Below, one piece after another: positions 40,401-61,873 of a DNA stretch of 61,873 nt. The stretch's first letter is position 1. Each line of letters starts with the position of its first letter. The position numbers and the translations under genes are program-made. The notes under the pieces were generated by a model that was not told the origin of the DNA, did not search any database, and saw nothing but the letters and a program-made list of their open reading frames with translations. The stretch spans positions 1-61,873 of the forward strand of contig JAHYJW010000004.1 in the NCBI GenBank assembly GCA_019428815.1, in the 5' to 3' direction. The DNA is from Patescibacteria group bacterium. Lineage in GTDB: Archaea; Nanobdellota; Nanobdellia; Pacearchaeales; GW2011-AR1.

Positions 40401-40577
40401 TTAAAGAGAGATAGCTTTTTGGGGGCAGGAATTTGCAGCTTTCTTCTCACATACTAAATCTTTGGAGATTTTTTTAACTCTTGCCTTCCCATCAGAAACT
40501 TCAAAACTTTTAGGGCAAATTGAAGCACAAAGTCCACAACCAATACACTTCTCTTCATCAATTTTTACTTTTCCCAT
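40401..40577 (-). CDS. Ferredoxin (58 aa)
   Basis: Manual ORF MGKVKIDEEKCIGCGLCASICPKSF...AANSCPQKAISL; GAGGT upstream. Confidence 0.92.
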   Translation of the reverse strand: MGKVKIDEEKCIGCGLCASICPKSFEVSDGKARVKKISKDLVCEKKAANSCPQKAISL

Positions 40578-42896: not shown

Positions 42897-42970
42897 AAAA
42901 AATAGAGTAAAGGCTATTTAAATCTTACTTGATAATTTTAAAAAAAAATAAAAATAAAAAACAACACAAA

Positions 42971-43564
42971 TCACTTTTTGAATTTGTTAGTAATAAAATA
43001 CTTTTTGCCCTTTATTCCTTTATCGTAAAGCCTCTTAGTATAACCCACATTATCAATTTGATCCTCTTGTATCCCTAGTTCATTTAAAACTTCCAAGATT
43101 TTATTTCGAGCCTTACTAACTTCACTTCTTTTTGCAAGGTATTCAATTTCAAGATAGGTGCCTACATTTTTAACATGATTAATCTCAATTACAACTCTTT
43201 TATCTTTTTTATAAAGATACGATTCTGTATGTTTTCTCTTCTTAACCCATGGTTCAAAACTAAGATCCTCCAAAAGAGCTAAAAAATTCCTCATTTGATC
43301 TCGATTTAGTATCTCAAATTCATATTCTTCTTTTACAACAACGCCCTCTTTCCAAAGTTTTTTAAGATGTTTTTTAAAATTAACAGTATACTTTTTACCG
43401 TCATATCTTATTCTGAATGCTTTTTTAGGATAACCTTTAGGATTAAATGCAAAGTAATCGTCACCCCGGCTTTCTGTTTTTTCATGGATTGCAATGCTTT
43501 TTATAATTTTTCTTAGAAGGGCAACATTATCAATTCGTGCTTTTGTTTCGACCTCTAGTAACAT
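42971..43564 (-). CDS. CYTH-domain protein (class IV adenylate cyclase/triphosphatase-like)
   Basis: EVETK, FRIR, VKKRK, YLEIE, GYTK. Confidence 0.85.
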   Translation of the reverse strand: MLLEVETKARIDNVALLRKIIKSIAIHEKTESRGDDYFAFNPKGYPKKAFRIRYDGKKYTVNFKKHLKKLWKEGVVVKEEYEFEILNRDQMRNFLALLEDLSFEPWVKKRKHTESYLYKKDKRVVIEINHVKNVGTYLEIEYLAKRSEVSKARNKILEVLNELGIQEDQIDNVGYTKRLYDKGIKGKKYFITNKFKK

Positions 43565-43602
43565 TTTTTACCTCTTTTTTGATTTATTCCACTTAAGAAT
43601 TT

Positions 43603-45700: not shown

Positions 45701-46708
45701 TTAAGAAGCAGGGTCTCTAACAGCTCCAAATACTATATTCCCGGTACAACTTCCAGCTACGCCCATAGGAACATAAATTCTCCAGAAACTAGGTTTAATG
45801 GCGTTATTAATAACATCATCTGTTCGCTTATTTAAATTAAATTCATAAACATTAACTTCAGTTGTTTTTGTTAAATTTGTATATGTTCCTTCAAATTCTC
45901 CAAAAGAAAGAGCCCCGGGAGTTGATTCAGTTAAATTGAACTTTTCATAGAATATAGAAATAAACCCGATAGCTCCTAGGCTACAATTCATTGCATAATT
46001 ATCCCCAGGAGTCTGCGCATAACCACTTAAAGTCAAATTTAGTTCGACATTACCATAATTAGTTACATTTGCTAATTGTTCATCTGAAACAAAAGTTGCA
46101 TTAACCTGTCCATAATTTATTGAATCTGGAAGCCCAATAGCCAACAGCTCATTAACAGACTGAGTACTACTATTAAAAGTTGTCCAACCCTCTGAATCTG
46201 TAACTAAAACACTTGCATTCCATAATCCTTCGTTGGCATAGTATTCTAAATAAAGGGTACAATTTGATTCAATTTCATACTCGTCCCCATAAGAGGTGTT
46301 TATATCACAACTGATGTTTGTATAATGGATGCTGTTATTATCAGCTCCCCCATAAAGAGAATTAGAATTATCAAAAAATTCTAAAGAAACATTATCTATG
46401 TCTCCTTCCCCATTAAAATCTCTCGCAATAACAATTACTGAAAGAAGAGTCGTAGAATTAGGTGTTAAATCAATAGAATATCCATCATTAATAGTAATAG
46501 ATAATATCTCAGGATAAACATTTCCAATATCCAGTTGAGAATTAACTGTAACATTTTCCCCTATACCCGCAGAAACTCTCGGAAATGAAAATACAAAAAA
46601 AGTACTAATTGCTAAAAATTGTAAAATAGCTAAAGCGAATATCAAGATTCCTAAAAACAAAAATTTCTTACTAATTTTTATTTTTTTATTTTTAAGTTTT
46701 ATTCTCAT
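45701..46708 (-). CDS. Secreted Asn-rich beta protein
   Basis: Signal/TM, many N-x-S/T sequons, C-terminal WRIYVPMGVAGSCTGNIVFGA. Confidence 0.78.
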   Translation of the reverse strand: MRIKLKNKKIKISKKFLFLGILIFALAILQFLAISTFFVFSFPRVSAGIGENVTVNSQLDIGNVYPEILSITINDGYSIDLTPNSTTLLSVIVIARDFNGEGDIDNVSLEFFDNSNSLYGGADNNSIHYTNISCDINTSYGDEYEIESNCTLYLEYYANEGLWNASVLVTDSEGWTTFNSSTQSVNELLAIGLPDSINYGQVNATFVSDEQLANVTNYGNVELNLTLSGYAQTPGDNYAMNCSLGAIGFISIFYEKFNLTESTPGALSFGEFEGTYTNLTKTTEVNVYEFNLNKRTDDVINNAIKPSFWRIYVPMGVAGSCTGNIVFGAVRDPAS

Positions 46709-46794: not shown

Positions 46795-47556
46795 TTAGAC
46801 TAATTCTATATAAAGGTAATATGCTGTGGCTCCCTCCCAATCAGAATTTCCTCTTTCAGGAACAATCATCTGAAAATCATATTTATTACCGTCATATCCC
46901 TCAATAGAGTCCTCTAAGATTGTAGTATAGATAAGATTCCCAGGGGAAAGGTAATCAACACCATCAAAAAGAACAACTTCTTGAAAAGATTCGTTTTGCG
47001 AGGTATCGTTTATATAAGTATAAAGAGAAGGGCAGGAATCTGAGAGGATGTGTGTAGTACCTACATAAAAATCATCATGAGTATTCCCCGAAAAAGTAGC
47101 GGTTAAATTATCATTTGGATTTGAATGGTTCAAAATAATATTCTCTGATTCTAAGATATCACTATTTGCACATTTAATCTGGTCCCATTGAACAAGCGTA
47201 TCATTACGTGTTGCATAAACATTTCCAGAGATTGTGGCAAGTTGCCAGTCATATATAGTAGAACCATTACTGTTATCAAGGGTAAATAATCCAAAAACCC
47301 ATCCAACAAATGCTTTCCAACGAGGATTTTGGATTGAAGCAGTGATATTCAAAGAGGAGATATAACCCCCAGATATATTCACCTCTACTCCTGGCAAAGC
47401 TAACTTTGTTTCGTTGCCGGTGATGTTTATTGAATCTGGGCCAGTTTGTTCTGCAACAACAAAAGAAGTAGTTAAAAGAATAACAATTAAAGAGGCTATT
47501 AAAACAATTAGGTTTAAAGGAAAATTTTTCAATTTAATTTTTTTATTTAAATCCAT
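46795..47556 (-). CDS. Secreted surface subunit (paralogue of 47764..48561)
   Basis: WKAFVGWV...IYDW...GNVYAT...YDFQMIVPE...YYLYIELV; GGTGAT RBS. Confidence 0.8.
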   Translation of the reverse strand: MDLNKKIKLKNFPLNLIVLIASLIVILLTTSFVVAEQTGPDSINITGNETKLALPGVEVNISGGYISSLNITASIQNPRWKAFVGWVFGLFTLDNSNGSTIYDWQLATISGNVYATRNDTLVQWDQIKCANSDILESENIILNHSNPNDNLTATFSGNTHDDFYVGTTHILSDSCPSLYTYINDTSQNESFQEVVLFDGVDYLSPGNLIYTTILEDSIEGYDGNKYDFQMIVPERGNSDWEGATAYYLYIELV

Positions 47557-47763: not shown

Positions 47764-48561
47764 TTATTCTATATCTAAATAGAAATAATAAGTTGTGGTA
47801 TCAATATCGGTTCCCCTCCCATCTTCAAGAACAACCATCTGGAAGTCATGTGAACGGTTATCAAAACCCAATTTCTCAACTTCTAAAAGTGCTGTAAAGA
47901 CTACACTTCTGGAAGTAGGTTCATAAAGAAGTACATTTTGAAAAACCTCTCCTGCTTCATATGTAAGAAGTTTTGCCGTTGGACACAATGCATTAAATTC
48001 TAAGCTCGAGGTATAAAAAACACGATGGTCTTCAGAAATAAATGTATCATTTACACCATCCCCTGCATAACCTGGGATGTTAAACATGTTATGAAGCTGG
48101 GTATAATTAAGACCATTTTGGCTAACTAATCCACTTCCTCCAGGTGTGTTTGGTGTTTCTGCTCCAAATGTTCCGGCAGCAGTAAGATTAAAACACATTA
48201 TATCTAACCATTCTATACCTGTTCCGTTTGTACTTGCATAAACCTGTCCTCTTGGATGTGCTTGACTCCAATTATACATGATATTACTACTTGCATCTGC
48301 TAATCGGATTGTACCGCTAACATTCCCAAAGTAACCTTGCCAGGTCTTAGTAGTTGAAAAACTATGTAGGACTAGTTCTGTTAGATTACCTGCAAAGGCA
48401 TCATGTGATCCTGGAGCTTCGATAGGCGCTGTGGTTGATGAACCCTCTTCTACTCCTGCTCCCTGAATCTCAGCAAAAACAAAAGGAGTCATAGACAAGA
48501 TTAAAACTATACTCGAAACTATCAAAAGAATTCCGTACACACTTTTATTATCTTTTTTCAT
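47764..48561 (-). CDS. Secreted surface subunit, candidate major subunit
   Basis: WQGYFGNVSG...MYNW...GQVYAS...HDFQMVVLE...YYFYLDIE; strong RBS. Confidence 0.8.
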   Translation of the reverse strand: MKKDNKSVYGILLIVSSIVLILSMTPFVFAEIQGAGVEEGSSTTAPIEAPGSHDAFAGNLTELVLHSFSTTKTWQGYFGNVSGTIRLADASSNIMYNWSQAHPRGQVYASTNGTGIEWLDIMCFNLTAAGTFGAETPNTPGGSGLVSQNGLNYTQLHNMFNIPGYAGDGVNDTFISEDHRVFYTSSLEFNALCPTAKLLTYEAGEVFQNVLLYEPTSRSVVFTALLEVEKLGFDNRSHDFQMVVLEDGRGTDIDTTTYYFYLDIE

Positions 48562-48744: not shown

Positions 48745-51700
48745 TTAGATTATTTCTGTATAAAAAACAACACTTTTTTTCCCATTACCTCCATATTCTC
48801 TTAAACTCGCGGGGATTCGCATTTCATAATCATAGGTTCCGTAGGTCCCTTCTTGTTGAAGGTTGATTTCAGTTACAAAAACAACATCTTCTTTATCTAA
48901 CCCCCCAAAAGATCCATCGGTGTCTTTAGAATAATCCCATAAAATTCCAGTAAGAAAATTACTACTATTAATAGAAATAGTTATAGGAATATTAAGAATT
49001 TCATTATTGAATACTAACAATGTCGTGGTATTTTTAACCTCTCCCTCTTCTAAATAAAGCTCTGAAATCGAATCCTGAAAATTAGACATATTCAAAAATT
49101 CATCTAGTTTAGAAAAATCCAAAGAAGAAACTCCCCCAGAAACATTTCTTCCTAAAGCTTGAAGATTAAACCAATAAATTAGGGAATCAACATTTGTTGC
49201 ATAAATGTTGCCCCCCTCGTTATTAGTCGCAAACCACCTAATAATCTTTGAACCATTTTGATTTTCTAATTCAAAAGTACTCTCAGAGGTTAGTTCTCCA
49301 TAAAAAAAATGCCAACTACCAACAGTAATTGATTTATTTGCAATGTTGTTTTCTTTTGTCACCTCTTCTATTTCACCGTCCGGATCAATAACCACAAATA
49401 AATTTGAAGTTCCCATAATGGCATTCCACAAAATAGAAAGGGTATAGTTTTCTAAAGCCCCAAAGGGAGCTATGAATAAATCTTCACCAAGCTGAACTCC
49501 GTCTATTTGAGGATCTCCTAAAAAAAATCTGACAGTTACATTTGGTACAGTAACGTTAACTAAGTTATAAAGAACGGCACTTAAATTAACAGTTTCGTTT
49601 TCAACAGGGGAATTAGTATCAAAGGTTATTTCTTCTGAACTTACAAAAAGGTCTGGTAAAGTAACATTAAACATCCTTGTTTCTGACCATTCAAAATTTC
49701 CAGCCTGATCCAAACATGTAACATTCCAAAGATGTTCTCCTAAAGAATAATTTCCAAGAATAACCTCTATAGAAGTCCCATTTTCTAGATTTATCTCTGA
49801 GGCATTTAGAATATTATCTACATAGAGTCTACATCTCAAATTTGGAGAAAAGTTGTCTTGAGCACTAAAATTAAAAAATACTGTTCTCAGGGTATTAGTC
49901 TGATTTAAAGGGTAATTTAAAGAAACAATTGGGGGAGTTAAGTCGATAGTAAAATTAAAAGGTTCTGGTGAGAAGGTATTAAAATCTGGGAAAACATCAG
50001 TACATAAAACAGTCCAATTATGCATTCCCTCTAAAATTCCTTCCACAATAAAAGAGTTATTAATATTTGCAACCAACTCTGGAGAAGAAATTGTTTTATT
50101 AAATCCACCATCTAAATAAAGGGAACAACTCGAAAGACCAATTGCATCTTCTGGAAGATAAATAAATTCAATGGTAGAAGAATTTAAATGTCCGTAATTA
50201 ACAGGTTCAAAAAGAGTTACTTTCGGGGGGGCGTAGATAGTAAAATTTCTTTCCCCACTTAGATTTTGGTTCTTCGCCATATCTCTACATCTTACCTGCC
50301 AAGTGTAGTTTCCATCTGATCTTGAAACATTTAATTGATTCAGGCTTCCGTTGGTTATACTTAAATTTTCATAAATTGGGATTTCATTTAATAAAAAATC
50401 ACAACTTAATGGAAAATCCATGTTATCTATTACTCTAAATTGAAAATTAATTTCGTTCCAATCGAGAGTTTCATTTTTTTCGGGGGATATTAAACTAATT
50501 TCTGGGGGTGCAGTATCTATAGTAAATACCCAAGTTTCTGTATGCCCTTCTAAGTCGGTTTTATCTTTAACTGAAACAAACCAAGAGTAGGTTCCATCTT
50601 CTAAGGTGACTGTAAAATTATTCTCTGCGTCGTTTTCAACAAAGGTTTGATTTGTCATATAAGGTTCACCATTAATCAAAAGCGTTGCATTAGATATATC
50701 GTCATTGTCATCAATCACAAAATAAGTAAGGTTTAGTGTAGAAGAATTATGAAAGGAATTATTTGGAGGAGAAATCAGTTCTACAAGGGGTGCAAAAGAC
50801 AGTATAAAGAATCTTGTTTCTGAAACCTGATAGTTCCCTGCAGGATCTTGACATGTAACATTCCAGTTTTTATTTCCTCCTTCTTCAAAATAAACTTCTC
50901 GGGAAGTAAGTGTTGCATTTGTTGCATTAAAAGAATCAACGACAATGCCATTTACATTTATATCACAAAAAAGATTTTCTGCGAGGTTATCTGTGACTGT
51001 ATAATTAAATTCTACTGTTGAAGAGAAAATATTTTCTTGATCTTCTGGAGAATTAAGGGTTATATTAGGTGACAAAGTATCTACATAAAATTTTCTTTGA
51101 GAAGCAGTTCCCACTAAACCCTGACTATCTGTAACATTAACAGTCCAGTTGTAAATTCCATCACTTAAATTTAAAGTAAAATTATTTATCTCCCCGATGG
51201 TTACAGGAGTTTGGTTTGTCATATAAATTTCCCCATTAATAATTAAAGTAGAATTAACAACTAAATTACTTGAATTATTAACTTGATATTCCAAAAAAAA
51301 TGTTGAGGTATTAAACCAAGTATTATTGGGGGTTATAAGAGTTACATAAGGGGGCATTTCTTCTTCAGTTATTGTAACCTTTCTTGTTGTTTCTCCTATT
51401 TCCAAATCAAAAAGAGAATTTGCAACACATCTTAGATTATTAACAGAGGCTAAGTTACCTCTTAAAGTGAAATTAGTATTTATTAATTCTTGACCAATAT
51501 CCCCTAAATTATGAGGATTTGTTTCTCCTTGTGCTAAAATAAGATTTCCCGAAGAAGAAATATTCTGCCACCCTTGCTGTGAGGTGTTATACTGAAGATA
51601 AACATTAGTCTCAGAACAAAAACCAATAGTACATGAAACTGAACAAGTTGCATTAAACTCTTCACTAGTTGAGATATTAATATCTTCTACAGGATAAATT

Positions 51701-54700
51701 AAATCTGTTTCCAAAAATCCTTCGGTGGTGATATTCAAATCAACCCCAGAATCTGGATCAAAGGGATTATCCCAAATATGGATTAAAGTGGTCTCTCTAC
51801 TAGGATTTCCGTCGGCATTGTAAGCATTTACAAGAAGCATTAAACGATCTTCAGGATTTAAATAAAGGTCTTCGGTTATACAATCTGAAACAGTTTCAGA
51901 AGTATATGCAGAAACAATTTTTCCGCCTGTTCCGTCGTTACCATAAGAACAAATCAGGGTATCTTCGGAAGAGTTAGTTACATAAAGTTTCCAAGTTAAT
52001 CTATATCTATCTATATTAGCTGTGTTTTGGAAAAGAGAGTGAAATGTTACAGGGCTACTTGCATGTATAATCGCACCATTATGGCCCATGTAATAAGAAG
52101 TAGCTTTAACAAGATTAAGAAGTGTCCCGGAATAAGAACTAAAACTTGCAGAATTTGAAGTACCATCTTTAGCACCACTAAGAATTATTTCAGCAAGGGT
52201 ATTTCCCGTAAAATTTTGAGTAAATGTTTCATAAAAAGTTTGGGGAATCATTTCCCGCGAGATATTTATATTAACTATCCAACTCTCGCTCCAACCTATC
52301 AAACCTCCAGCATCAGTACAAGAAACACTCCAGTTATAGGTTCCATTTGAAGCGTAAAGATCAAAGAACAAGGGAGTATCTTTAAAGATTATATAATCTG
52401 TTTGTTTAAGTTCGTCATTTAAGTAAATAGAACAATTTTGAATTGGAGATTCATCTGAAACGTTATATTGAAAAGTTAAGTTGAAATCATTAGTAATTGT
52501 AGATCCATTAGACGGAGAGATTAAATTAACAACTGGCTCTGTAGTATCAAAAGAAAAAGTTCGGTTTGAAAAAGAAAATTCACATCCATTAAAATCGTCA
52601 CAACATTGTATATTCCACAAGTAATTTCCCTGTTGAGAATAAGTTTTATTAAAATAGTTATATTCCCCATTTAGGATTAAGGTTTGATTGGTTTTATTCA
52701 TATGCCAATTTCCTGTAGAATTATCCCAAAGACTACAATTTAGAAAGTTGTCTGAAGAAAGAGGAGTATAATTAAAGATAACATCATAAGAATTTAAAAT
52801 TGCTTGATGAAATGGGGAATTTAAGGTCACAGAAAGATTCCCTAATTCCGGTACTTCATAACTCACATTAAAGAATAAAACGTCAAAAGACCAGGTTCTT
52901 GTTTGCCTGTTATTTGCACTATAAGCTTGAGTTCTTGCCATCGCTCTGGCTCCTGTTGATCCAAAAAAATTAGAACACTGCCAATTAAAATCAGATGTTA
53001 CGTTAATACATTCAAATGAGGTGGGTTCAGAGACATAACAACTTGCAAGAGTATTGCTCGACCAGGTTGTTCCACTATCATTACTAACATCTACATAACA
53101 AGTACTCTCTCCGTCCGGAGCTCCCCAGAACTTATAACAAATTTCAACACTGGTAATGGTTTCACAATCTGTAATCCCGGAATTATAAGAGGCTATTTTT
53201 ATTCCCCCATATTCTCGCGTATTACCAAAACGATAAGATTGGGCGGTTTCGTAATTTGAATCATCACAGCTTACTCTATCCCCTGAAGAAGAACATGAAG
53301 AAGGATAAAATCCCTCACAGTTTAAATCAAAGGTATCCCTATTACCTTGTAAACTCTGTCGTGAACATTCTTGAGCTCTAAGTTCAACGCTTCCCCCAGG
53401 ATATGCGAGAGGGTCAACTATGTAATCAAATTCTAAGGTACCCCCTATAATCTTTAAATCAAAACCATCTTGACTAGAGTCTAAACCAAATAAATAAATT
53501 GAATTTGGGCTATGCTCAGAGATCTCGGTTATCTCTCCTACGATATCTTCCCCACCTAATTCATAAACCTTAATTTGAGGATCTCCAGAGATTATCCTTG
53601 GATAAAATTTAATGTAATTCAAAAAAGATAAATTTTGTTCAAAGATAACTCTCACATATTCTCCATCATTTATGGGGGGGCTCCAGATACCATCTAAGTT
53701 TTTAACTTCCTCATAGATATTTGAAATAAAATTTTTTTCTGAATCTAAATGTTCAGCACTAGCAACCTCAATTATAATCTCAAAGGTTTGGGTTGATAAT
53801 TGTGGGATAACCCATTCAAGATAATCGTAGAACCCGTCCCCATCTTTATCTTGCAAATTAAAACTATCAATAAAAGAATCTTCTTCAACCCAGAAGATTT
53901 TTATTCTAGAGGGATCCCTAATCTTAAAAGAATTTTCTAAAGAGGTAAAAACTAAAACATCTTCGTATAAAGTACTACTTGGACTAGTTGCAGTAATCAT
54001 CTTACCATTAGGAATTTTCTTTTCTTTAGAATAGGGGGCGGGAGTCTCATAAGTGATCCAATATTCTGCGCTAAGATTATCTACATCAAAGGTTACTTGG
54101 ATTTTTTTATTTTCAGAAAAATTTTTCTCTCCTAAAATGTTTAGCCAAGAAAAAAGGTTTTTTATAAAATTTTTTTCTCCTTCAGGGGAGATTACTTCTT
54201 CTTTCATATAAATCTCAAGTTCTTCAGTTTGATTATACAAAATCTTATTTACAAGAATCTTGTCAGATTCTAGGGGGATAAAAAAAGAGAAATTTCCTAA
54301 AAAACTAGGAAACACCTCCTCATTCCAGGATACCGGCTCATCTAGTTTAGTTTTATAATCTAAGGGAGAATTCTGTTCTAAGATAAGGTTACAGGAATTG
54401 TTACAACCTCCTGTTAAAAAAGAACTTTCTTCTTCAATTATTTTTTCCCTAACAGAAAGATACAAATCTTCTCTGCCTTTAGAAGTTTGTAAAGTGAGGG
54501 TATAATTACCTATTTCATTTAAAGGAAAAATAAGAATCTCACTTGAACCTTCTTTTAGATAAGTTGAAGAGGGGGTTTTAACTCTTAAGATAAAATCACC
54601 CTGATCTCTTAAATCTAAACGAAAAAAATCATCAAGATTATAATAAAGGACTGAACCTGCTGAAAAAATCGAAAGATTATTTAAAAGAATTATAAAACAG

Positions 54701-54759
54701 AATAAAAAAAAGACAGATAATGCTAATATCCCCCGTTTGATTAACCTCTTTTTATTCAT
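48745..54759 (-). CDS. Giant surface protein/adhesin (2004 aa): Ig-like repeats, CARDB-like domain, shared C-terminal domain
   Basis: Signal/TM; repeated P-V-L-I-S-P...Y-x-W-x-V-x-C-x-D modules; PDLFVS...VVIDPDGEIEE...NN; ends YDYEMRIP...VVFYTEII. Confidence 0.85.
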   Translation of the reverse strand: MNKKRLIKRGILALSVFFLFCFIILLNNLSIFSAGSVLYYNLDDFFRLDLRDQGDFILRVKTPSSTYLKEGSSEILIFPLNEIGNYTLTLQTSKGREDLYLSVREKIIEEESSFLTGGCNNSCNLILEQNSPLDYKTKLDEPVSWNEEVFPSFLGNFSFFIPLESDKILVNKILYNQTEELEIYMKEEVISPEGEKNFIKNLFSWLNILGEKNFSENKKIQVTFDVDNLSAEYWITYETPAPYSKEKKIPNGKMITATSPSSTLYEDVLVFTSLENSFKIRDPSRIKIFWVEEDSFIDSFNLQDKDGDGFYDYLEWVIPQLSTQTFEIIIEVASAEHLDSEKNFISNIYEEVKNLDGIWSPPINDGEYVRVIFEQNLSFLNYIKFYPRIISGDPQIKVYELGGEDIVGEITEISEHSPNSIYLFGLDSSQDGFDLKIIGGTLEFDYIVDPLAYPGGSVELRAQECSRQSLQGNRDTFDLNCEGFYPSSCSSSGDRVSCDDSNYETAQSYRFGNTREYGGIKIASYNSGITDCETITSVEICYKFWGAPDGESTCYVDVSNDSGTTWSSNTLASCYVSEPTSFECINVTSDFNWQCSNFFGSTGARAMARTQAYSANNRQTRTWSFDVLFFNVSYEVPELGNLSVTLNSPFHQAILNSYDVIFNYTPLSSDNFLNCSLWDNSTGNWHMNKTNQTLILNGEYNYFNKTYSQQGNYLWNIQCCDDFNGCEFSFSNRTFSFDTTEPVVNLISPSNGSTITNDFNLTFQYNVSDESPIQNCSIYLNDELKQTDYIIFKDTPLFFDLYASNGTYNWSVSCTDAGGLIGWSESWIVNINISREMIPQTFYETFTQNFTGNTLAEIILSGAKDGTSNSASFSSYSGTLLNLVKATSYYMGHNGAIIHASSPVTFHSLFQNTANIDRYRLTWKLYVTNSSEDTLICSYGNDGTGGKIVSAYTSETVSDCITEDLYLNPEDRLMLLVNAYNADGNPSRETTLIHIWDNPFDPDSGVDLNITTEGFLETDLIYPVEDINISTSEEFNATCSVSCTIGFCSETNVYLQYNTSQQGWQNISSSGNLILAQGETNPHNLGDIGQELINTNFTLRGNLASVNNLRCVANSLFDLEIGETTRKVTITEEEMPPYVTLITPNNTWFNTSTFFLEYQVNNSSNLVVNSTLIINGEIYMTNQTPVTIGEINNFTLNLSDGIYNWTVNVTDSQGLVGTASQRKFYVDTLSPNITLNSPEDQENIFSSTVEFNYTVTDNLAENLFCDINVNGIVVDSFNATNATLTSREVYFEEGGNKNWNVTCQDPAGNYQVSETRFFILSFAPLVELISPPNNSFHNSSTLNLTYFVIDDNDDISNATLLINGEPYMTNQTFVENDAENNFTVTLEDGTYSWFVSVKDKTDLEGHTETWVFTIDTAPPEISLISPEKNETLDWNEINFQFRVIDNMDFPLSCDFLLNEIPIYENLSITNGSLNQLNVSRSDGNYTWQVRCRDMAKNQNLSGERNFTIYAPPKVTLFEPVNYGHLNSSTIEFIYLPEDAIGLSSCSLYLDGGFNKTISSPELVANINNSFIVEGILEGMHNWTVLCTDVFPDFNTFSPEPFNFTIDLTPPIVSLNYPLNQTNTLRTVFFNFSAQDNFSPNLRCRLYVDNILNASEINLENGTSIEVILGNYSLGEHLWNVTCLDQAGNFEWSETRMFNVTLPDLFVSSEEITFDTNSPVENETVNLSAVLYNLVNVTVPNVTVRFFLGDPQIDGVQLGEDLFIAPFGALENYTLSILWNAIMGTSNLFVVIDPDGEIEEVTKENNIANKSITVGSWHFFYGELTSESTFELENQNGSKIIRWFATNNEGGNIYATNVDSLIYWFNLQALGRNVSGGVSSLDFSKLDEFLNMSNFQDSISELYLEEGEVKNTTTLLVFNNEILNIPITISINSSNFLTGILWDYSKDTDGSFGGLDKEDVVFVTEINLQQEGTYGTYDYEMRIPASLREYGGNGKKSVVFYTEII

Positions 54760-54895: not shown

Positions 54896-56992
54896 TTAAG
54901 AGTCTTTTAGGAACTTATGTAAATCCTCTAAAGTTCCATATACTTTCTTTTTTGATGAGTATGGAAGAGATTTATATTTCTCTGATATTTCAAGATAAGT
55001 TTTTTCTGATTCTTCCTTTTTTCCTTTAGAAGAAAAAGATCTTGCTTCATTTGATTTTTGAATAATCTCTTCAACTAACTTAAGAGACCGATTTCTCAAT
55101 TTAATAAATCCTAAATAGAAAACTGCGATTAAAATCAAAAGGACTACTAATGAAACCCCCATAGAAATTTCATCTAAATCTTCTAGTACTAAAAACCCGG
55201 TTATTCCGGTTCCAGATGTTTTAGTTTCAGGAGGAAGGTAAACAATCCCAAATAAAATTTCTTCTAAAGAATCTAATTCTACTTCTTTTTCTATAAAGTA
55301 ACTTATTTCCTTAGTATCTGCAGAAAAAGAAATAACCAATTCTTTAATAGTTTGATAATTTTTATTTTTAATAGACAATTCGGAGATACTTTCAACAACA
55401 CCCCTTGGGAGAACTTCTAAAAAGATAAAACTATCAGTTTTATTTAAGGTTCCTCCAATTTCTCTAATTAAGAGAAATACGTCTTTATCTACGCCCCCCA
55501 TTTGTTGAATATTTATATTAATAGCTCTTGTTTTTACAGAGATTCCTCTTTCTGTTATTATTGCACTAGACTTTCTAATCATCCTGCTATCAAAATTATC
55601 AAGAGCATAGGGAATTATCTCTAGGTATAATCTCTCAATAGTTTCTTCACTAAAAACTTCATCAATTACTCTTTCTTCTTGAATAAAGATATTTTCAGGG
55701 AAATTTTTTCTAAGATTAGCTAATTTAATCCTAGAAGAACTTAACTTATTTTCTAATTCATTCTCATTTAGATTTTGAGTTTTGAATAATTCTATTTCAT
55801 TTTTAATAGAGTTCATATTTGAAAAAGTCCTATCAATTTCTTGGAAGATACCTAATCTCTCAACAATCTCCTTTTTTTCATTTTCAGAATTTTTAAAAGA
55901 AGACTCTATACTTTTCATCTCTGAATAAATGTTTTCTAATTCAATGAGAAGACTTTCTACACGGGGAATTAAAGAAAGAGAAAGGCCTCCTTCGTTAGGA
56001 TTAATGTCTTCTCTTAAAACAGTTACCTCAATTGTTCTAGAAAGATCCCCTATATTTCCTGCATCGTCGACAGCGGAAATTTTATAATAATAAGTTTTAC
56101 CTTTTTCGACAAAGGCATCTAAAAAAGATTTTTTTTCAACAAATCTATAAAAATCGGATTTATCTAATGTAGGGGATTCAGACCTATAAATATTAAATCC
56201 TAAGACGTCTTCTTCTAAATACCACTCCAAAAAAGCTTCGCCTTTTCTTCCTTCGCTTCTAATACTCTGAATAGTGGAAGGCTTTAAAGTATCAATAAGA
56301 AAAACATTTCCAGAGGATATTTTAGTTCCAATTCTTCCCTCTAAGTCTGTTCCTTTAAAAGAAAAAGAACCAACAGCATTGCCCAAATTTCCTGGGATAA
56401 TTAGATAACTAAACCAATTTTGACCAGAGCCAGAAAAAGGAAGAGGGATATAATCGACCCCATTAAAAGAGTATTTGATTTCAGGAACTTCTGAAAGTGA
56501 ACGAGAGGTAGTTAACATTACTTTATAACTCCCCCCCTTCAAAGGCGGGGTTTCTAAAAAAGAGATTCTTGCAGAAACTAAAGGATTAACATAAAAATTT
56601 AATTCTAATTCTGGACTAAAACTGTTTTCATTATCATAAGCACAAATAACATAAAGAGAAAAAATGCCCTGATCTAATCCAAAAAAAGACTTTTCGTGTA
56701 AAAGTCCGTAATTTTCAAAGTTGCCCTCCATTGAGTTGTAATTTTTTCCAGAAGAAGAGTCATATTTGCAAAGGGATTCTTCATTTGTTAAGATTCTTAT
56801 CATCGCATTATTCCATTTCCATCCTCCAAGAGGAATTGAACTTCCAAAATCGTAGGCAAGCGGATCCTCTAGAGAAACATTAAAACTATACTCTAAAACA
56901 GGAGGAGATGATGCAAAAAGATTTTGTGATAAAAAAAGGATTATAAAAAACGAAAGAAATGCCTTAAGTAAAATACGAGATTTATTTTTCAT
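54896..56992 (-). CDS. Membrane-anchored Ig/FN3 + coiled-coil surface protein
   Basis: Signal peptide; FN3 (FNIYRS...TYYYKISAVD); helical stalk; ITG + TM + cytoplasmic tail. Confidence 0.8.
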   Translation of the reverse strand: MKNKSRILLKAFLSFFIILFLSQNLFASSPPVLEYSFNVSLEDPLAYDFGSSIPLGGWKWNNAMIRILTNEESLCKYDSSSGKNYNSMEGNFENYGLLHEKSFFGLDQGIFSLYVICAYDNENSFSPELELNFYVNPLVSARISFLETPPLKGGSYKVMLTTSRSLSEVPEIKYSFNGVDYIPLPFSGSGQNWFSYLIIPGNLGNAVGSFSFKGTDLEGRIGTKISSGNVFLIDTLKPSTIQSIRSEGRKGEAFLEWYLEEDVLGFNIYRSESPTLDKSDFYRFVEKKSFLDAFVEKGKTYYYKISAVDDAGNIGDLSRTIEVTVLREDINPNEGGLSLSLIPRVESLLIELENIYSEMKSIESSFKNSENEKKEIVERLGIFQEIDRTFSNMNSIKNEIELFKTQNLNENELENKLSSSRIKLANLRKNFPENIFIQEERVIDEVFSEETIERLYLEIIPYALDNFDSRMIRKSSAIITERGISVKTRAININIQQMGGVDKDVFLLIREIGGTLNKTDSFIFLEVLPRGVVESISELSIKNKNYQTIKELVISFSADTKEISYFIEKEVELDSLEEILFGIVYLPPETKTSGTGITGFLVLEDLDEISMGVSLVVLLILIAVFYLGFIKLRNRSLKLVEEIIQKSNEARSFSSKGKKEESEKTYLEISEKYKSLPYSSKKKVYGTLEDLHKFLKDS

Positions 56993-58196
56993 GTTTCTTT
57001 AATAAAAATTCAAATTTTTTTAGGTACCTCCTTTTTTCTTTTCGGATACTATAAATTAAAAAGATTAAGGTAAGTATTGCGATTCCATAAATAAAGAGGG
57101 TTAAAAATGCGGGATCAACTCCCCTTTTTTCAACATTCATGATCGCCGCAGATTCAAAGGTCTTTTTTTTATCATAAAAAACCCTCCCCGTAATTATGTG
57201 TCTGCCTGGATCTTCGGGAGTAAAGAAAAAAGTAAAGTTCTCAGTTCCACTTTCGGGGACGATGATTTCCTCGCTTTCTAGAAGCCTAATTATTCTTCCT
57301 CCGAGAGATATTTCACCCTTGAATCTAGCTACTACATTTTTTTCTCCGATATTTTCAAATTCTATTTCAATTGGGACTGTCTCTCTCACTTCTGTCCAAA
57401 GTGTAGTATAAATTCCTTTTATAATCCCCTTTGCTCTTAACTCTCCAGGCTCAAGAATATCAAATGTTAAGAAATCGGAGGCTAAACATTCAATTACTGA
57501 AAATTCTGCCCAATATTGCATCTTATCGAGATAACGACTGGGAAATTTAAAAGATAATTTTTTTTCTTGTGTAGGAGTGATCTCTTCCCCCCGAATAGAT
57601 GATGTATCAATCAAGTTTAACATTTCATTATCCCATATCTCGATTTCTACTAAAGGTTTAAGGCGAATATTTCCTTTATTCAAAACATCAACACTAAAAA
57701 CAATGTCGTCCCCTTGTTCAACAGATTCTACATAAAAATTTCTTGCTCGACAATCAACATATTCAATGTCTGTTACTTCTACAAGGATAGCAACATCAAG
57801 AACAGTTTTAACAAAGCCTGTTGCCATTCCGTCTTCAGTAGGGCTGTCAATAGCATCTACAAAAAGTCTAAGATATCCGGTATAATTTCCGTTAGGCATG
57901 TCTTCTGGAGGAGAAACAGAAACAGTGATCAATTGAGAATTCTCTTTGGAAATCTCAAATTCTGATTGAGAAAAATTAAGCCAACTTGAAATCTGGCCTC
58001 GGGGTTCTAAAGAAACCATTACTAATTCATCAGAACCAAAAGTAACCCGTATATTCCTTTCAGCATATCCCCCCCTTAAGACTCTTTCATAATTTAAATT
58101 TCCGGGACTAACCCCCAAGATAGCTGCACTTGTAGTTTCTACTAAAATAATCAGTATCAAAAAACTAAATAAAATTCTAATTTTCATTTTTTTCAT
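56982..58196 (-). CDS. C-terminally anchored tandem Ig protein, DUF916/DUF3324- or PapD-like
   Basis: Signal peptide, LGVSPG, VSVSPPEDMPNGNYTG, LNKGNI, FENIGE, TM + basic tail. Confidence 0.7.
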   Translation of the reverse strand: MKKMKIRILFSFLILIILVETTSAAILGVSPGNLNYERVLRGGYAERNIRVTFGSDELVMVSLEPRGQISSWLNFSQSEFEISKENSQLITVSVSPPEDMPNGNYTGYLRLFVDAIDSPTEDGMATGFVKTVLDVAILVEVTDIEYVDCRARNFYVESVEQGDDIVFSVDVLNKGNIRLKPLVEIEIWDNEMLNLIDTSSIRGEEITPTQEKKLSFKFPSRYLDKMQYWAEFSVIECLASDFLTFDILEPGELRAKGIIKGIYTTLWTEVRETVPIEIEFENIGEKNVVARFKGEISLGGRIIRLLESEEIIVPESGTENFTFFFTPEDPGRHIITGRVFYDKKKTFESAAIMNVEKRGVDPAFLTLFIYGIAILTLIFLIYSIRKEKRRYLKKFEFLLKKHEK

Positions 58197-58359
58197 TATT
58201 TTTTTTGTCTAATATCCAGTAAATAACAATATTCCTGATTATCTCAGCCTTAGTATTTCCCAGAATTCCTTTATACTTCTCTATTTGTCCAATTTGATGA
58301 GAACTAAATGTTACGGGGATTTTTTCTTTCTTAGACACTTTTGGGGAACCTTTAGACAT
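58177..58359 (-). CDS. Ribbon-helix-helix (CopG-like) regulator
   Basis: IPVTFS beta-strand, two helices with GNTKAEIIRNIV; first gene of the operon. Confidence 0.75.
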   Translation of the reverse strand: MSKGSPKVSKKEKIPVTFSSHQIGQIEKYKGILGNTKAEIIRNIVIYWILDKKNNEKNEN

Positions 58360-58687: not shown

Positions 58688-60787
58688 ATGGTTAAAAAAG
58701 GGGGATTATTCATCTTTTTATCAATAGTCCTAATTGGAATTTCATTTATCACTTTTACTTCCCCAGATGAAGTAGAAACATTATTAGAAGTTCCTGTCTC
58801 TTCACCTCTAGTTTTTGAAGTACCTATACCAAATCAAATTTGGGCCACAAACACAAATCATACAAATGCCTTGAATCTTAACAATCATTTTACCAACTAT
58901 ATGGGAACAAATACTACTTTCAATGTAACTGAAGTAGAAAATATAACCATCCTCATAGATGAAGAAGGTTTTGTTTCATTTTACCCGGATTTAAATTTTG
59001 AGGGAATTAGAGAAGTTGTATTCCACGCACAAGCTGCAGGTATTGTGGGATTATACAATGCAAGTAGTAACTTTGTTCAATTAGAAGTTCTTTTAGATGA
59101 AGAATCACCAAAATGGAGTAATCCTCAAAAGAGTAGAACAGACATATTTCAAAGTGACTTTATCAGATTTTATACAAACTGGACAGATAACCTAGCATTA
59201 GATAGTTTTCTTTTTTCGATAAACCAGGGTTCAGGATGGGTTAATGGATCAAGAGTTTATTTTTCAGGGGTTTCTAATTTTTCTAAACAAACAATCCAGA
59301 TAAGTGCTCCTGGAGGTACTGGGGTTAGTTGGGCATTTTATGCTTGGGACACCTCGGGAAATATAAACCGGACAAGTATTCAAACCTTTACTGTAGAAAT
59401 TACCGAAACTCCAACAGAACCAGGCCCTGGAGAAGAAGTTATTATAGATCCAGAAGAAATAATTTCAGAATTTTCAGTTACCCCCGGAATAATCGAATTA
59501 AAAATGAAACAGGGTGAAGAGATTACCCGATTTTTAAGAATTCAAAATGAGGGAAGAGAATCTTCTAACTTTAAAATTGTTCTAAACGGACTAGAGGAGT
59601 TTTTGGTTTTAGATAAAACAGAAGTAACAATCCCTGGGAGAACTTCTCAGACCATTACCTTAGATTTTAAGGTTGGCGAAAGAACATTTCCGGATTTATA
59701 TTTTGGGTATATTGACATTATCGGAGATAGTAAAACCAGAAGAGTGCCCATAATTCTAGAAATAAATCCCTTAGAAATAGACTTTGAGGTAGGTGTTCAG
59801 GTTAAAAATAAAGACAAACGAGTTTTACCGGGAAAAGAGGTAGAAATTGAAATAAGGATCACAAATCTAGGAGATTATGCAAGGGAAAATGGAACTTTTT
59901 ATTATGCAATAAAGGATGTTTACGGGAAGACACTTGACTTTTCTCAAGAAGAATTTGAATTGAAAGATGAAGAATTCTTTATAAGAACCTTAAAAATTCC
60001 TACTGATACCCTAAAAGGGTATTATATAGTTTATGTTAGAGGAAATTTAGAAAAAGAGACTTCCATTGCAACAGATAATTTTGAAGTAGGAGCAAGATTT
60101 GATGTTGCAGGTTTTATAAAATTAAACTTTATTTTGATTTTAATAATCTTGATCTCTTTAATAACTGCTCTTTTGATTATTCGGAGCCGCAGGAATAGAG
60201 AGAGACTAAAAATCTTAAACTTATATCTTAAAGTAAATGAGTTAAAAGAACTAATAAACCAAAAACAGTTAGATAAAGCAATAGAGTATTACATAAAAAT
60301 TAAATCCGAATATGGTGAACCGGTTTCAGAGAAGATTTTGGATAACAAAGAAAAGCTTAAAGAAGAAATGCAAAGATTAGCAGATAGTTTTGATAAAAAA
60401 AATTCTGGATTAAAAGAGATTTCTAAAGAGGTTGAAGATAATGACAAAGAAAAAAAAGAGGGTGAGGAGATTGAAGAAAAAAATCTAGAAAAGAAAGGTT
60501 CAATTAAAAGGGAGATAGTCAAAGAAAAAATGAACAAAGAAGAAAATATTAAAGATGAGCATTTAATGAATAAAAAAGAAAATGGCGAGGAATTAAAGGA
60601 AGAGAAAGAAAATAAGATAGAGGAAGAGGTAGTTAAGAAACGAGATGGATTAAATGAAAACAAAAAATCTCAGAATAAGATTAAAAATCAAAAATTAAAG
60701 AAAAGTTTGAACAAACCTAAAAAAAGAGGTAATGAAACGAAAAAAAATTCTTTAAAGACTGATAAACCAAAAACAAAGAAAAAATAA
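58688..60787 (+). CDS. Membrane-anchored multi-Ig surface protein with a K/E-rich cytoplasmic tail
   Basis: Signal/TM, cadherin-like FYPDLNFEGIREV, several Ig domains, TM near aa 480, charged tail. Confidence 0.8.
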   Translation: MVKKGGLFIFLSIVLIGISFITFTSPDEVETLLEVPVSSPLVFEVPIPNQIWATNTNHTNALNLNNHFTNYMGTNTTFNVTEVENITILIDEEGFVSFYPDLNFEGIREVVFHAQAAGIVGLYNASSNFVQLEVLLDEESPKWSNPQKSRTDIFQSDFIRFYTNWTDNLALDSFLFSINQGSGWVNGSRVYFSGVSNFSKQTIQISAPGGTGVSWAFYAWDTSGNINRTSIQTFTVEITETPTEPGPGEEVIIDPEEIISEFSVTPGIIELKMKQGEEITRFLRIQNEGRESSNFKIVLNGLEEFLVLDKTEVTIPGRTSQTITLDFKVGERTFPDLYFGYIDIIGDSKTRRVPIILEINPLEIDFEVGVQVKNKDKRVLPGKEVEIEIRITNLGDYARENGTFYYAIKDVYGKTLDFSQEEFELKDEEFFIRTLKIPTDTLKGYYIVYVRGNLEKETSIATDNFEVGARFDVAGFIKLNFILILIILISLITALLIIRSRRNRERLKILNLYLKVNELKELINQKQLDKAIEYYIKIKSEYGEPVSEKILDNKEKLKEEMQRLADSFDKKNSGLKEISKEVEDNDKEKKEGEEIEEKNLEKKGSIKREIVKEKMNKEENIKDEHLMNKKENGEELKEEKENKIEEEVVKKRDGLNENKKSQNKIKNQKLKKSLNKPKKRGNETKKNSLKTDKPKTKKK

Positions 60788-60791
60788 CAAA

Positions 60792-61873
60792 ATGGATTTA
60801 CTAAAAAAAGGGTTGATCCTAATTTTTGTGGTGTCTATCCTTATTTCAAGTAGTTTTATAACTTCTGCAGAAATGGAAGACTCAGAATCTGCTTTTGGAA
60901 ATCCTATCGTCACAGAACAATATGAAATCTCAAGGAGCTGGGTTAAAAGAATAATTTCTGAAGGGCGAATTTTACAGGATAATATAATTATAAAAAACTT
61001 AGGAAGTTCATCAATGAGTGTTTCTTTTATGATAATGGGAGGGGTTGAAGAGATAATTAGCCTTTCTGCAGATGGATTAATCATTGAGCCCTATAATTAT
61101 GAAGAACTAACCTTCCAGATAGTAGGACTAAACGAAGGGGAATACACCGGACATATTTCTTTAACGGGGGGAGTATCTCAAGAAATTCCGGTTTTAATAA
61201 AAGTAAGGGATAAAATAGAAGGGACCCGCTTTTTAATTGAGATAAACTCCTTAAAAGAATCTTACCTCATGGGGGAAGAACTTTTATTTTTGTTGAATAT
61301 AAGAAAATTAATTCAAGATTCCAAAGAAGACATCATAGAAGCAGAGTATTATCTAAAAGGAGGAGGAGAATCTTTTTTTCTTGAGGAAGAGACCTTAAAC
61401 GTTTCGTATTCTACGCAAATAAAAAAAACATTTGAGATACCAAAAAATGTTACAGAAGGAGTTTATAACATTGAATTGATTATGAAGTTAGAAGACGAAA
61501 CAGTTGTTTCAAAATCTCAACTTAAAATAATTTTACCCTTTTGGCTTAAAAAATTTTTGGGAATTCCGTTATGGATAATTATCACCGCTCTAGGGATTGT
61601 TGCTTTAGGGATTGGGGGAACTTTAATCGCGAAAAAAATTCTTGAAAAAAAGAAGAAATATAAAATGAAATTAGAATTTAAAACAATTCCTAAAGCTGGA
61701 GAAAGGTCATTCTATTTAGGAAAGATCGCGGAAACAAATACAAATACTTATTACAATATGGACGATCTTACAACACACATGGTTGTTGCGGGAGCAACAG
61801 GAGGAGGTAAAAGTATCTCTGCCCAGGTTTTTGTTGAGGAGGCATTAAAAAAGAATATTGCTGTTGTAGTTTT
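60792..61873 (+). CDS. Ig-domain/TM/HerA (DUF87)-like ATPase fusion, truncated by the window end
   Basis: Manual ORF MDLLKKGLILIFVV...; Ig-like region, TM PLWIIITALGIVALGIGG, then FYLGKIAE...THMVVAGATGGGKS in frame. Confidence 0.85.
   Translation, partial: MDLLKKGLILIFVVSILISSSFITSAEMEDSESAFGNPIVTEQYEISRSWVKRIISEGRILQDNIIIKNLGSSSMSVSFMIMGGVEEIISLSADGLIIEPYNYEELTFQIVGLNEGEYTGHISLTGGVSQEIPVLIKVRDKIEGTRFLIEINSLKESYLMGEELLFLLNIRKLIQDSKEDIIEAEYYLKGGGESFFLEEETLNVSYSTQIKKTFEIPKNVTEGVYNIELIMKLEDETVVSKSQLKIILPFWLKKFLGIPLWIIITALGIVALGIGGTLIAKKILEKKKKYKMKLEFKTIPKAGERSFYLGKIAETNTNTYYNMDDLTTHMVVAGATGGGKSISAQVFVEEALKKNIAVVV

Follow-up and report, generated by a model that had tools for sequence, protein, structure and literature searches.

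The closest described relatives of the protein treated here are the SPEARE proteins of Nanohaloarchaeota. In the passages of Hamm (2019; PMC6642349) that deal with them, most of each protein is extracellular, a transmembrane (TM) helix lies close to the C-terminus, and the conserved portion inside the cell is read as a type III restriction enzyme; versions extend from 8,553 down to 655 aa, with one of 717 aa, 'similar sequences' are mentioned for Woesearchaeota and other DPANN archaea, and nucleic acid uptake via SPEARE is proposed. In the corresponding passages of Reva/La Cono (2023; PMC10266531), the domain is re-annotated as an ATPase of VirB4/TraG-like type with a coiled coil behind it, and the giants are proposed to be secretion 'straws'. 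The stretch of DNA analysed here (contig JAHYJW010000004.1 of assembly GCA_019428815.1, 61,873 nt, hereafter the window) ends inside a gene of this design, whose product we read, with a probability of about 0.5, as a ring translocase that is anchored in the membrane and belongs to a cell-contact apparatus. DPANN archaea spend their lives attached to other cells and are without most biosynthesis, and how they obtain material from their hosts is an open question.

What does the window hold? Its last open reading frame (ORF) encodes the N-terminal 360 residues of a protein from a DPANN-archaeal family, a compact member of ~750-800 aa. In the ORF listing the frame (60792..61871, + strand) opens with ATG and is stop-free up to the window end; it starts 4 nt past the stop of a 699-aa gene (58688..60787, + strand). 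The window is the entire contig C4, one of nine contigs of a 644,994-bp genome bin (85.18% complete, 0.43% contamination, ~30% G+C), and the ORF is therefore ended by the assembly and not by a stop codon. That it runs off the end was noted in an earlier model-made reading of the sequence (the original prediction), as was the order of signal peptide, about two Ig-like domains, TM helix and HerA/DUF87 start; both observations stand, the second by hydropathy, by the Pfam model PF01935 and by the predicted structure of a homologue. The latter, P0001, is a full-length homologue of 775 aa, 41% identical to the window ORF, and was modelled with AlphaFold2 (AF2) on an alignment of 29 compact members. 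The features of the window gene are as follows.

60792..61873, + strand: truncated ATPase gene (short paralogue, cluster c0), N-terminal 360 aa, cut by the contig end
60792..60872, + strand: signal peptide, ~residues 1-27, hydrophobic core 8-23, ...TSA ahead of the cut (hydropathy; helix 3-22 of the P0001 model)
60915..61205, + strand: Ig-like domain 1, ~residues 42-138, an ASH/PapD/MSP-like beta-sandwich (borders transferred from P0001, approximate)
61224..61529, + strand: Ig-like domain 2, ~residues 145-246, a membrane-proximal beta-sandwich (P0001 model; borders approximate)
61563..61634, + strand: single TM helix, ~residues 258-281, then a K-rich stretch (positive inside) (hydropathy; P0001 helix 256-283)
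61713..61871, + strand: start of a DUF87/HerA-class P-loop domain, residues 308-360 (Pfam PF01935)
61788-61814, + strand: Walker A, residues 333-341, invariant in 27 aligned sequences
61747..61873, + strand: last 127 nt, found in identical form, in reverse complement, at the head of contig C6; assembly fork (contig-end comparison)

Only two hydrophobic stretches are present in the ORF, at residues ~1-28 and ~246-284, when these are taken as 19-aa segments with a mean Kyte-Doolittle value of at least 1.6 (segment starts at residues 1-10 and 246-266); the signal-peptide cleavage site is inferred and does not come from a dedicated predictor. Residues 282-300, right after the TM helix, contain eight K/R vs two D/E, which places the C-terminal part inside the cell. 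In 29 homologues, N-x-S/T sequons number 2.41 per 100 aa ahead of the TM helix and 0.31 past it. The ectodomain of the window ORF thus delimited measures ~230 residues. PF01935, the DUF87/HerA central domain, is matched at 31.8 bits (cut-off 23.2) over profile positions 2-57 of 220; in a genome scan the score is 36.1 bits, and full-length P0001 scores 44.8 bits.

The P0001 model has a mean predicted local distance difference test score (pLDDT) of 80.3, with values > 90 across most of the ATPase, and is made up of the following parts (AF2; P0001 residues).

3-22: signal helix
38-133: beta-sandwich 1
141-242: beta-sandwich 2
256-283: TM helix
300-570: ATPase domain
576-686: four long helices
687-775: disordered tail

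Domain 1 resembles ASH/PapD/MSP sandwiches at Z ~11-12 (HYDIN PapD-like 2e6j, Z 11.0; VAP MSP 6tqr, Z 11.5), and domain 2 resembles Spo0M (5cl2, Z 13.0) and GH2-type sandwich domains (Z ~11). From the TM helix to the first strand of the ATPase core there are ~25 residues and no HAS-barrel.

At the level of sequence, alignment shows the catalytic motifs to be intact in the full-length homologues. In the 29 compact members the Walker A motif G-x4-GK is invariant and the next S nearly so; the Walker B D459-E460-V-H, R483, R486 and S496 (P0001 numbering) are invariant as well, as are the segments F-D-P-T-x-Q-W-x-G and G-G-x-G-x-G-F-x-Q-x-E-R, together with most positions of a K-A-N-I-x-x-E-x-Q-x-R-T...D-L segment. 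A profile search of the PDB returned seven sequences at E <= 1, all of them HerA-type (4d2i at 3.4e-8, 9c1m, 8wiv, 9x1l, 8xau, 8ziq and YjgR 11kk). In the profile alignment with Sulfolobus solfataricus HerA, the Walker B of the family falls on EEAH and R483/R486...S-Q on REGRK...SQ; the R of GRK in HerA 4d2i is what we take to be the trans-acting arginine finger. The original prediction had proposed a check of Walker B and the arginine finger, and both were found in the full-length homologues (DEVH and the motif that aligns with REGRK), the 3' part of the window gene itself being unassembled.

The fold leads to much the same class. The Foldseek matches of the ATPase are HerA entries (8xau, 4d2i, 9x1m, 8woc). 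Comparison of the P0001 model with 48,161 representative chains by VIA-align gave HerA 4d2i at Z 24.0 (root-mean-square deviation 3.0, 249 residues aligned), the DndH C-domain at Z 23.4, VirB4 4ag5 at Z 22.4, TrwB 1e9r at Z 17.5, FtsK at Z 16.6 and EccC at Z 15.8. HerA, DndH and VirB4 are thus nearly tied by fold, and it is the sequence profiles that favour HerA/DUF87. Membership of the FtsK-HerA superfamily is indicated by PF01935 above its gathering score, the Walker A and a RecA-like fold nearest to HerA/VirB4. P0001 also has a sub-family-level ResIII match across the P-loop region, and matches to Pfam AAA_10 and TrwB_AAD_bind lie below their cut-offs.

The family core consists of two membrane-proximal Ig-like domains, a TM helix, a cytoplasmic HerA/VirB4-class ATPase, a helical (coiled-coil) end and a disordered K/E-rich tail. 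Could the two Ig-like domains be an accident of the window gene? This was ruled out, as they are part of the conserved core. A search with the ATPase region of the long homologue P0029 (residues 735-1085, 351 aa) found 260 proteins of 2161-5000 aa. The 120 of these that are listed show 46-62% identity over 94-100% of that region and come from Woese-, Pace-, Aenigmat-, Micr- and Hadarchaeales assemblies and from Nanohaloarchaea, the nanohaloarchaeal ones being P0074, P0144 (Ca. Nanosalina) and P0158. The window ORF aligns to all 120 listed giants, with ~25-40% identity for the ORF as a whole; the alignment starts before residue 250, and so extends into the ectodomain, in 119 of them, and starts at or before residue 70, covering both Ig-like domains, in 56.

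A hidden Markov model (HMM) built from the 29 compact members matches, among cluster representatives (clusters at 50% identity), 3996 at E <= 1e-3, 1835 at E <= 1e-10 and 447 at E <= 1e-30. Among the best 150 of the 447 (437-6253 aa, the size range of these core-bearing DPANN proteins), the large majority have one matching stretch, from profile position ~30-50 to ~640-790; about 20 start later in the profile and are mostly shorter, probably partial, and in the long complete proteins the stretch lies at the C-terminal end. Together, the alignments and the profile stretches indicate that the Ig pair, TM helix, ATPase and helices form an invariant module and that the N-terminal remainder is variable cargo. 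Judged by its sequence, the window gene is this module with nothing added, the smallest form of the family.

A protein search yielded 60 longer homologues (631-1726 aa) from Pace-, Woese- and Nanoarchaeia assemblies, which carry only the name 'DUF87 domain-containing protein'. They cover 22-99% of the query, and 56 of the 60 cover at least 82%, ectodomain included. Relatives are encoded in at least 534 stretches among the 600 pattern matches listed (contigs of one genome per species). With 201 genomes sampled evenly across the phylum, 47 match at E <= 1e-20. The family is widespread but patchy. In a quick tree the compact forms and those of ~1200-1400 aa group together among the giants (nine label changes vs a shuffled mean of 48.8), and the window gene falls in a Pace/Woesearchaeota clade; the tree was made with FastTree and rooted on one long branch (1.37, the genome's own C7 paralogue), and with its root unsure it is used for the clustering of short and long forms only.

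Stand-alone proteins of 347-440 aa that share the ectodomain were also seen (L079:362-1444; L080:405-1448 and 1414-2736). In each, a signal peptide or anchor precedes the two-Ig module, after which come a TM helix and a short tail.

The place where the window gene breaks off deserves attention. C4 closes with 127 nt that recur, identical but in reverse complement, at the start of contig C6; the two contigs overlap over 230 nt, with 85% identity overall, exact in the last 127 nt only. At the head of C6, on the minus strand, a paralogue is found with an open frame of 782 aa and a larger ectodomain, 38% identical to the window ORF over 324 aa, from the two Ig-like domains through the TM helix into the first part of the ATPase. 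The shared 127 nt represent an assembly fork, two paths leading into one node between paralogous ATPase cassettes. As the ectodomain-TM-ATPase junction lies in sequence where C4 and C6 diverge, it is not a chimeric join. None of the 18 contig ends has a 5'-open ATPase frame; a profile search of the genome for the missing 3' part returned C4, C6 and a third paralogue on contig C7 only, and an exact search of metagenome contigs with the last 80 nt gave zero matches.

Why should two assembly paths meet at this point? Where relatives have both paralogues assembled, the DNA of the two ATPase cassettes is 73-88.5% identical, and exact runs occur between them: 534 nt in L014/L045 (one assembly), 245 nt in L030, 143 nt in L006/L031, and also 67, 58 and 52 nt. 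The short and long cassettes of L014/L045, L030 and L006/L031 are only 79-88.5% identical and yet contain these runs. Exact runs inside diverged cassettes are best read as patchy, recurrent gene conversion between the two motors, which is what the sequence comparison suggests. Another genome of the phylum, G073 (contigs C6, C11 and C12), has two N-terminal pieces, both cut by a contig end where profile position 383 is reached, and, apart from these, two C-terminal pieces that span profile positions 612-788; the ATPase cassette is absent from the assembly. Recurrent exact identity between paralogous cassettes thus explains frequent breakage in metagenome assemblies and missed annotation.

The third paralogue (C7:19889-21880, + strand; 663 aa) sits in a different gene context. 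It has an N-terminal TM helix only and no ectodomain, followed by a cytoplasmic linker of ~190 aa and the ATPase of the family (profile positions 292-727, E 2.5e-113). The motifs of this copy deviate: the Walker B is C-E-D-V-H, and the second arginine of R-x-x-R-K-x-G is replaced. A fourth DUF87 match (C1:100660-101271, - strand; 43 bits, profile positions 18-205) lies inside a 446-aa open frame, which may be the ordinary soluble HerA-like ATPase of the genome. Sequence is shared by other contig ends as well, namely the heads of C1 and C3, the head of C2 and the tail of C3, and the tail of C2 and the head of C5. Two large surface-protein genes on C1 and C3 (minus strand) have distinct N-termini on a common C-terminal sequence. 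These shared ends are either variants within the population or additional places where the assembly forks in genes for surface proteins.

Turning to the neighbourhood, ORFs were called and clustered in 76 related loci. A conserved trio was shown, consisting of an ATPase-less twin, then the ATPase, then a small cytosolic partner, inside a surface cluster with a second, longer paralogue. The twin, c2, is the 699-aa gene upstream. The original prediction saw its Ig domains as similar in style to those of the ATPase gene; this is borne out by profile comparison, where the ectodomain profile matches the c2 family at an hhalign probability of 99.1% (E 2e-18, 210 columns; residues 258-471 of the 699-aa protein), and c2 is an ATPase-less twin of the window ATPase. 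Of 37 short-form genes, 31 have c2 immediately upstream and in the same orientation (a further three have no upstream ORF in the locus), and c2 overlaps the ATPase gene in 26 of the 31, with start calls made on ATG only. In long forms with a recognisable Walker A, the surface protein c1 stands at the place of c2 in 16 of 22. A complex prediction for window residues 30-300 with residues 255-545 of the upstream partner (score 0.00, mark 0.32) carries no weight either way. Downstream, the gene families c21, c23, c15 and c12 have one C-terminal domain in common (hhalign 97.1-99.1%), and some ATPases end in a tail that corresponds to the N-domain of c12 (98.1%, hhalign). A member of these four families is directly downstream, on the same strand, in 15 of the 37 short forms.

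The neighbouring features in the window are listed below, from the ATPase gene outward.

58688..60787, + strand: upstream partner c2, 699 aa, ATPase-less; signal peptide, N-terminal domain, two-Ig module 258-471, TM helix, cytoplasmic coiled coil, K/E-rich tail
58177..58359, - strand: 60-aa ORF between divergent genes; its position matches the c18 small ORFs (70-97 aa) of 10 related loci, a positional likeness
56982..58196, - strand: c10, 404-aa single-pass surface protein; homologues in 19 of 76 loci
54896..56992, - strand: c1, 698-aa surface protein with a C-terminal TM helix; 28 of 76 loci; the representative has PKD/CarboxypepD_reg-like domains
48745..54759, - strand: 2004-aa Ig-repeat surface protein (Big_7, Big_13, CARDB); matches in 50 of 76 loci, which may partly reflect shared Ig repeats and not orthology
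47764-48561, - strand: second small exported protein of family c3; 19 of 76 loci
46795-47556, - strand: c3, small exported protein; 19 of 76 loci
45701-46708, - strand: c7, small exported protein; 19 of 76 loci

Co-occurrence of the ATPase with this 45.7-58.4 kb cluster, which the original prediction had asked about, was found, with homologues near the ATPase in 19-50 of the 76 related loci. The first Ig-like domain of c10 resembles that of the ATPase ectodomain (hhalign 85.2%, E 6e-6, 74 columns). The module was also sought in c1, c5, c6, c7, c3, c29, c30, c17 and c25 and is ruled out there, with hhalign probabilities <= 8.5%. Pfam finds little in the cluster families beyond PKD/CarboxypepD_reg/CARDB-type sandwiches, a SpoIIM-like membrane protein and a winged helix-turn-helix (wHTH) protein. 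Beside the surface cluster, at 40558-45552 (- strand), are genes for pyruvate:ferredoxin oxidoreductase-type subunits (POR, POR_N, TPP_enzyme_C) and an AMP-forming acetyl-CoA synthetase.

Contig C8 (6.7 kb), open at both ends, carries the neighbours to be expected: on one strand c4, c29, c3, c24 and c5, in this order, and on the opposite strand a c21-like gene. From synteny in relatives, the scaffold is likely C4(+), gap, C8(-), gap, C6(+), in which the two ATPase genes would be convergent and the cluster would extend over ~35 kb. On C8, a 194-aa ORF (C8:3541-4125, + strand) matches the c24 family over 166 residues only; c24 proteins are hydrophobic and of ~365 aa, the representative having an H-E-G-G-H motif, and the ORF may be a shortened c24 copy.

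How much of this is new? The original prediction set the design apart from canonical HerA, which is soluble, and from CedB/VirD4, which have no ectodomain of this sort. The design is not unprecedented, as ectodomain-TM-ATPase-coiled-coil DPANN proteins, the 655- and 717-aa versions included, are already in print in the sections of PMC6642349 and PMC10266531 that treat them. New here are the ATPase-less twin upstream, the small cytosolic partner family downstream and the ~35-kb conserved surface cluster with two convergent ATPase paralogues. No paper was found on the compact Pace/Woesearchaeota forms or their gene cluster, and the supplements of PMC6642349 may list some. The coiled-coil loci of the 2023 Hamm preprint were considered and set aside; they are type IV pilus loci and not a cluster of the window type.

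How might such a protein work? As a translocase, it would assemble into a ring, as other FtsK-HerA ATPases do, and this ring, probably hexameric, would be pressed on the membrane from the inside, since TM helix and core are only ~25 residues apart and a HAS-barrel is missing. Its TM helices, perhaps joined by those of the twin, would form or gate a passage, the Ig-like domains would serve as an outer collar, and ATP hydrolysis would drive a polymer (protein or DNA) through the assembly at the surface or at the site of host contact. The giant relatives would be the same core carrying adhesin arms. As a minimal form without such arms exists, the task of the motor is probably more than the holding of its own ectodomain. 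A contact-dependent DNA or protein conduit, or an assembly motor, as the original prediction put it, is the same hypothesis as that in the 'straw' passages of PMC10266531. A bolder version, which we regard as possible but doubtful, is that the trio constitutes the minimal unit of a new archaeal envelope-translocation system, distinct from type IV, Ced and type VII systems and serving as a DPANN-host protein or DNA conduit, with the SPEARE-type giants being the same pore with adhesin arms. If true, this would be the long-sought conduit of DPANN-host exchange.

Several points weigh against a ring translocase. Ring, channel and substrate are all inferred from superfamily membership, and a single TM helix in each subunit offers little from which to build a pore. 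A polytopic channel partner is not strictly linked: the SpoIIM-like c14 is found in 14 loci and the membrane family c24 in seven. Pfam scans of 20 cluster representatives gave no type IV secretion system (T4SS), Ced, type VII secretion system (T7SS), pilus or nuclease families, of which the T4SS, Ced and T7SS results count here. The Walker B and arginine finger of the window gene itself lie outside the assembled sequence. The family is patchy, with an ATPase-bearing match in ~37 of the 201 phylum genomes (counted from the listed rows), and the four other genomes of the window's own family match the ectodomain part only; the two of these that were read (L079 and L080) hold ATPase-less two-Ig-TM proteins.

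With these points in mind, could the motor serve the surface instead? ATP would then be used to insert, mount, tension or release surface proteins (c1, c2, c10, the 2004-aa protein) or the giants' own adhesin arm, with no substrate passing between cells. We regard this as possible, though doubtful. The cluster consists mostly of exported or single-pass surface proteins, the two-Ig module recurs in c2, partly in c10 and in the stand-alone proteins of family-mates, as would fit co-assembly in one array, and Pfam finds adhesin-type domains on the giant relatives. The minimal form, on the other hand, has no adhesin to mount, and Sec export of signal-peptide proteins requires no extra motor. Characterised FtsK-HerA ATPases thread DNA or protein via a central pore, and a member with the role of an anchor or tensioner is not known to us. 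A more specific alternative is a dedicated importer or exporter of DNA like crenarchaeal Ced or a conjugative coupling protein, which would supply a nucleotide-poor symbiont with DNA of its host or allow DNA to be exchanged when cells touch. The top sequence and fold matches are the DNA translocases HerA and DndH, with TrwB and FtsK lower, the best NCBIfam match is named 'DNA-translocating ATPase CedD', and the uptake proposal of PMC6642349, as worded in its SPEARE passages, points the same way. A purely DNA-directed pump nevertheless seems rather unlikely to us: the CedD match reaches 40.6 bits vs 600 in the Walker A region only, the 20 cluster representatives include no CedA-like polytopic partner, relaxase or nuclease, and by fold VirB4 (Z 22.4) and EccC (Z 15.8), ATPases of protein or nucleoprotein secretion, match about equally.

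Transport may also be dispensed with altogether. The protein could be a receptor-like regulatory ATPase, in which binding of a ligand or host by the ectodomain switches a cytoplasmic ATPase that signals to, or remodels, cytoplasmic partners (the coiled-coil protein c4 and the small partner family). Its single-pass layout is of the receptor type, a cytoplasmic coiled coil and small partners are conserved, and the cluster has wHTH and small DNA-binding-like genes; we nonetheless hold this to be highly improbable, since conservation is far higher in the ATPase core than in the ectodomain (46-62% identity across phyla for the core vs ~25-40% for the whole window ORF aligned to the giants), which is typical of a machine part, and a regulatory receptor-like precedent in the FtsK-HerA superfamily is not known to us. 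The slimmest chance of all goes to an artefact, that is, a frameshift fusion, an assembly chimera or a dead gene fragment. Such a suspicion arises naturally where an ORF stops at a contig end, its last 127 nt are common to another contig and the bin is 85% complete. It is countered by the position of the ectodomain-TM-ATPase junction, where C4 and C6 differ, by identical collinear architecture in hundreds of independent assemblies, by the same double break at the ATPase cassette in G073, and by the exact runs of 534, 245 and 143 nt in relatives whose paralogues are both assembled. The possibility of a frameshift or chimera, raised in the original prediction, can thus be set aside in favour of a genuine fusion, the C6 paralogue and hundreds of genomes having the same layout. 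A membrane-anchored ring translocase is the reading we prefer.

The family is widespread (the 447 clusters at E <= 1e-30), and with its cluster takes up ~5% of the 645-kb genome; it is the only obvious pumping ATPase that is wired directly to surface proteins. The compact form shows which parts are indispensable, namely two Ig-like domains, TM helix, motor and coiled coil, and its size allows expression and structure solution, by which the published 'secretion straw' idea for the giants becomes testable. The value of the find thus lies in the definition of a core and in a tractable target, and not in a lack of precedent.

How does the family compare with known systems? TrwB-type coupling proteins are ring ATPases held in the membrane via N-terminal TM helices. 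With VirB4 and VirD4-TrwB the window family shares one superfamily (VirB4 4ag5, Z 22.4; TrwB 1e9r, Z 17.5), but it differs in its ectodomain and in having no other T4SS gene among the scanned cluster representatives; P0001, P0029, P0033 and P0023 have no Pfam match to the CagE_TrbE_VirB N-domain, and VirB4-type NCBIfam matches reach 15-25 bits vs cut-offs of 325-590. EccC/EssC is an FtsK-like ATPase tethered by its own TM helices and part of a protein-export channel. The likeness is one of fold (Z 15.8), whereas the window family has one ATPase domain instead of three or four, a TM helix that comes after an ectodomain, and an archaeal setting without Esx-type genes. Ced (NF053655, CedD) is likewise an archaeal membrane-associated HerA-class ATPase, a proposed DNA mover and the top NCBIfam match; the match is confined to the Walker A region at 40.6 bits vs a cut-off of 600, and a CedA-type partner was not found in the 20 representatives.

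Archaeal HerA, the translocase of HerA-NurA end resection (S. solfataricus 4d2i, T. kodakarensis 9x1l), is the best match of the ATPase core by sequence profile and by fold. The DUF87 domain is common to both, and Walker A, Walker B (an acidic pair, then x-H) and R-x-x-R-K-x-G...SQ all align. In contrast to HerA, the window family is without a HAS-barrel, is anchored in the membrane and has an ectodomain; the HerA NCBIfam models score 30.2 bits vs a cut-off of 800 and 25.5 vs 970. NurA, Mre11 and Rad50 were absent from the Pfam matches of the window neighbours and of the 20 cluster representatives, no genome-wide search for NurA having been made.

Closest of all are the SPEARE proteins. A signal peptide, an Ig-like ectodomain, one TM helix near the C-terminus, a cytoplasmic HerA/VirB4-class ATPase and a terminal coiled coil are common to both, an order that is seen in the window ORF as far as it runs and in full in P0001. 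SPEARE-type giants, represented here by the listed proteins of 2161-5000 aa, of which the three nanohaloarchaeal ones have accessions other than the named SPEARE ones, have a homologous ATPase region and two membrane-proximal Ig-like domains. The giant SPEARE ectodomain of thousands of residues has no equal in the ~230 residues found here, yet versions of 655 and 717 aa are counted as SPEARE in the relevant passages of PMC6642349. The differences are of size and setting. The compact form has ~775 aa vs 3,000-9,409 aa and is the core only, without adhesin, propeller or protease-like modules, and the window family belongs to a Pace/Woesearchaeota clade in which the ATPase has a fixed upstream twin, a downstream partner and a longer paralogue.

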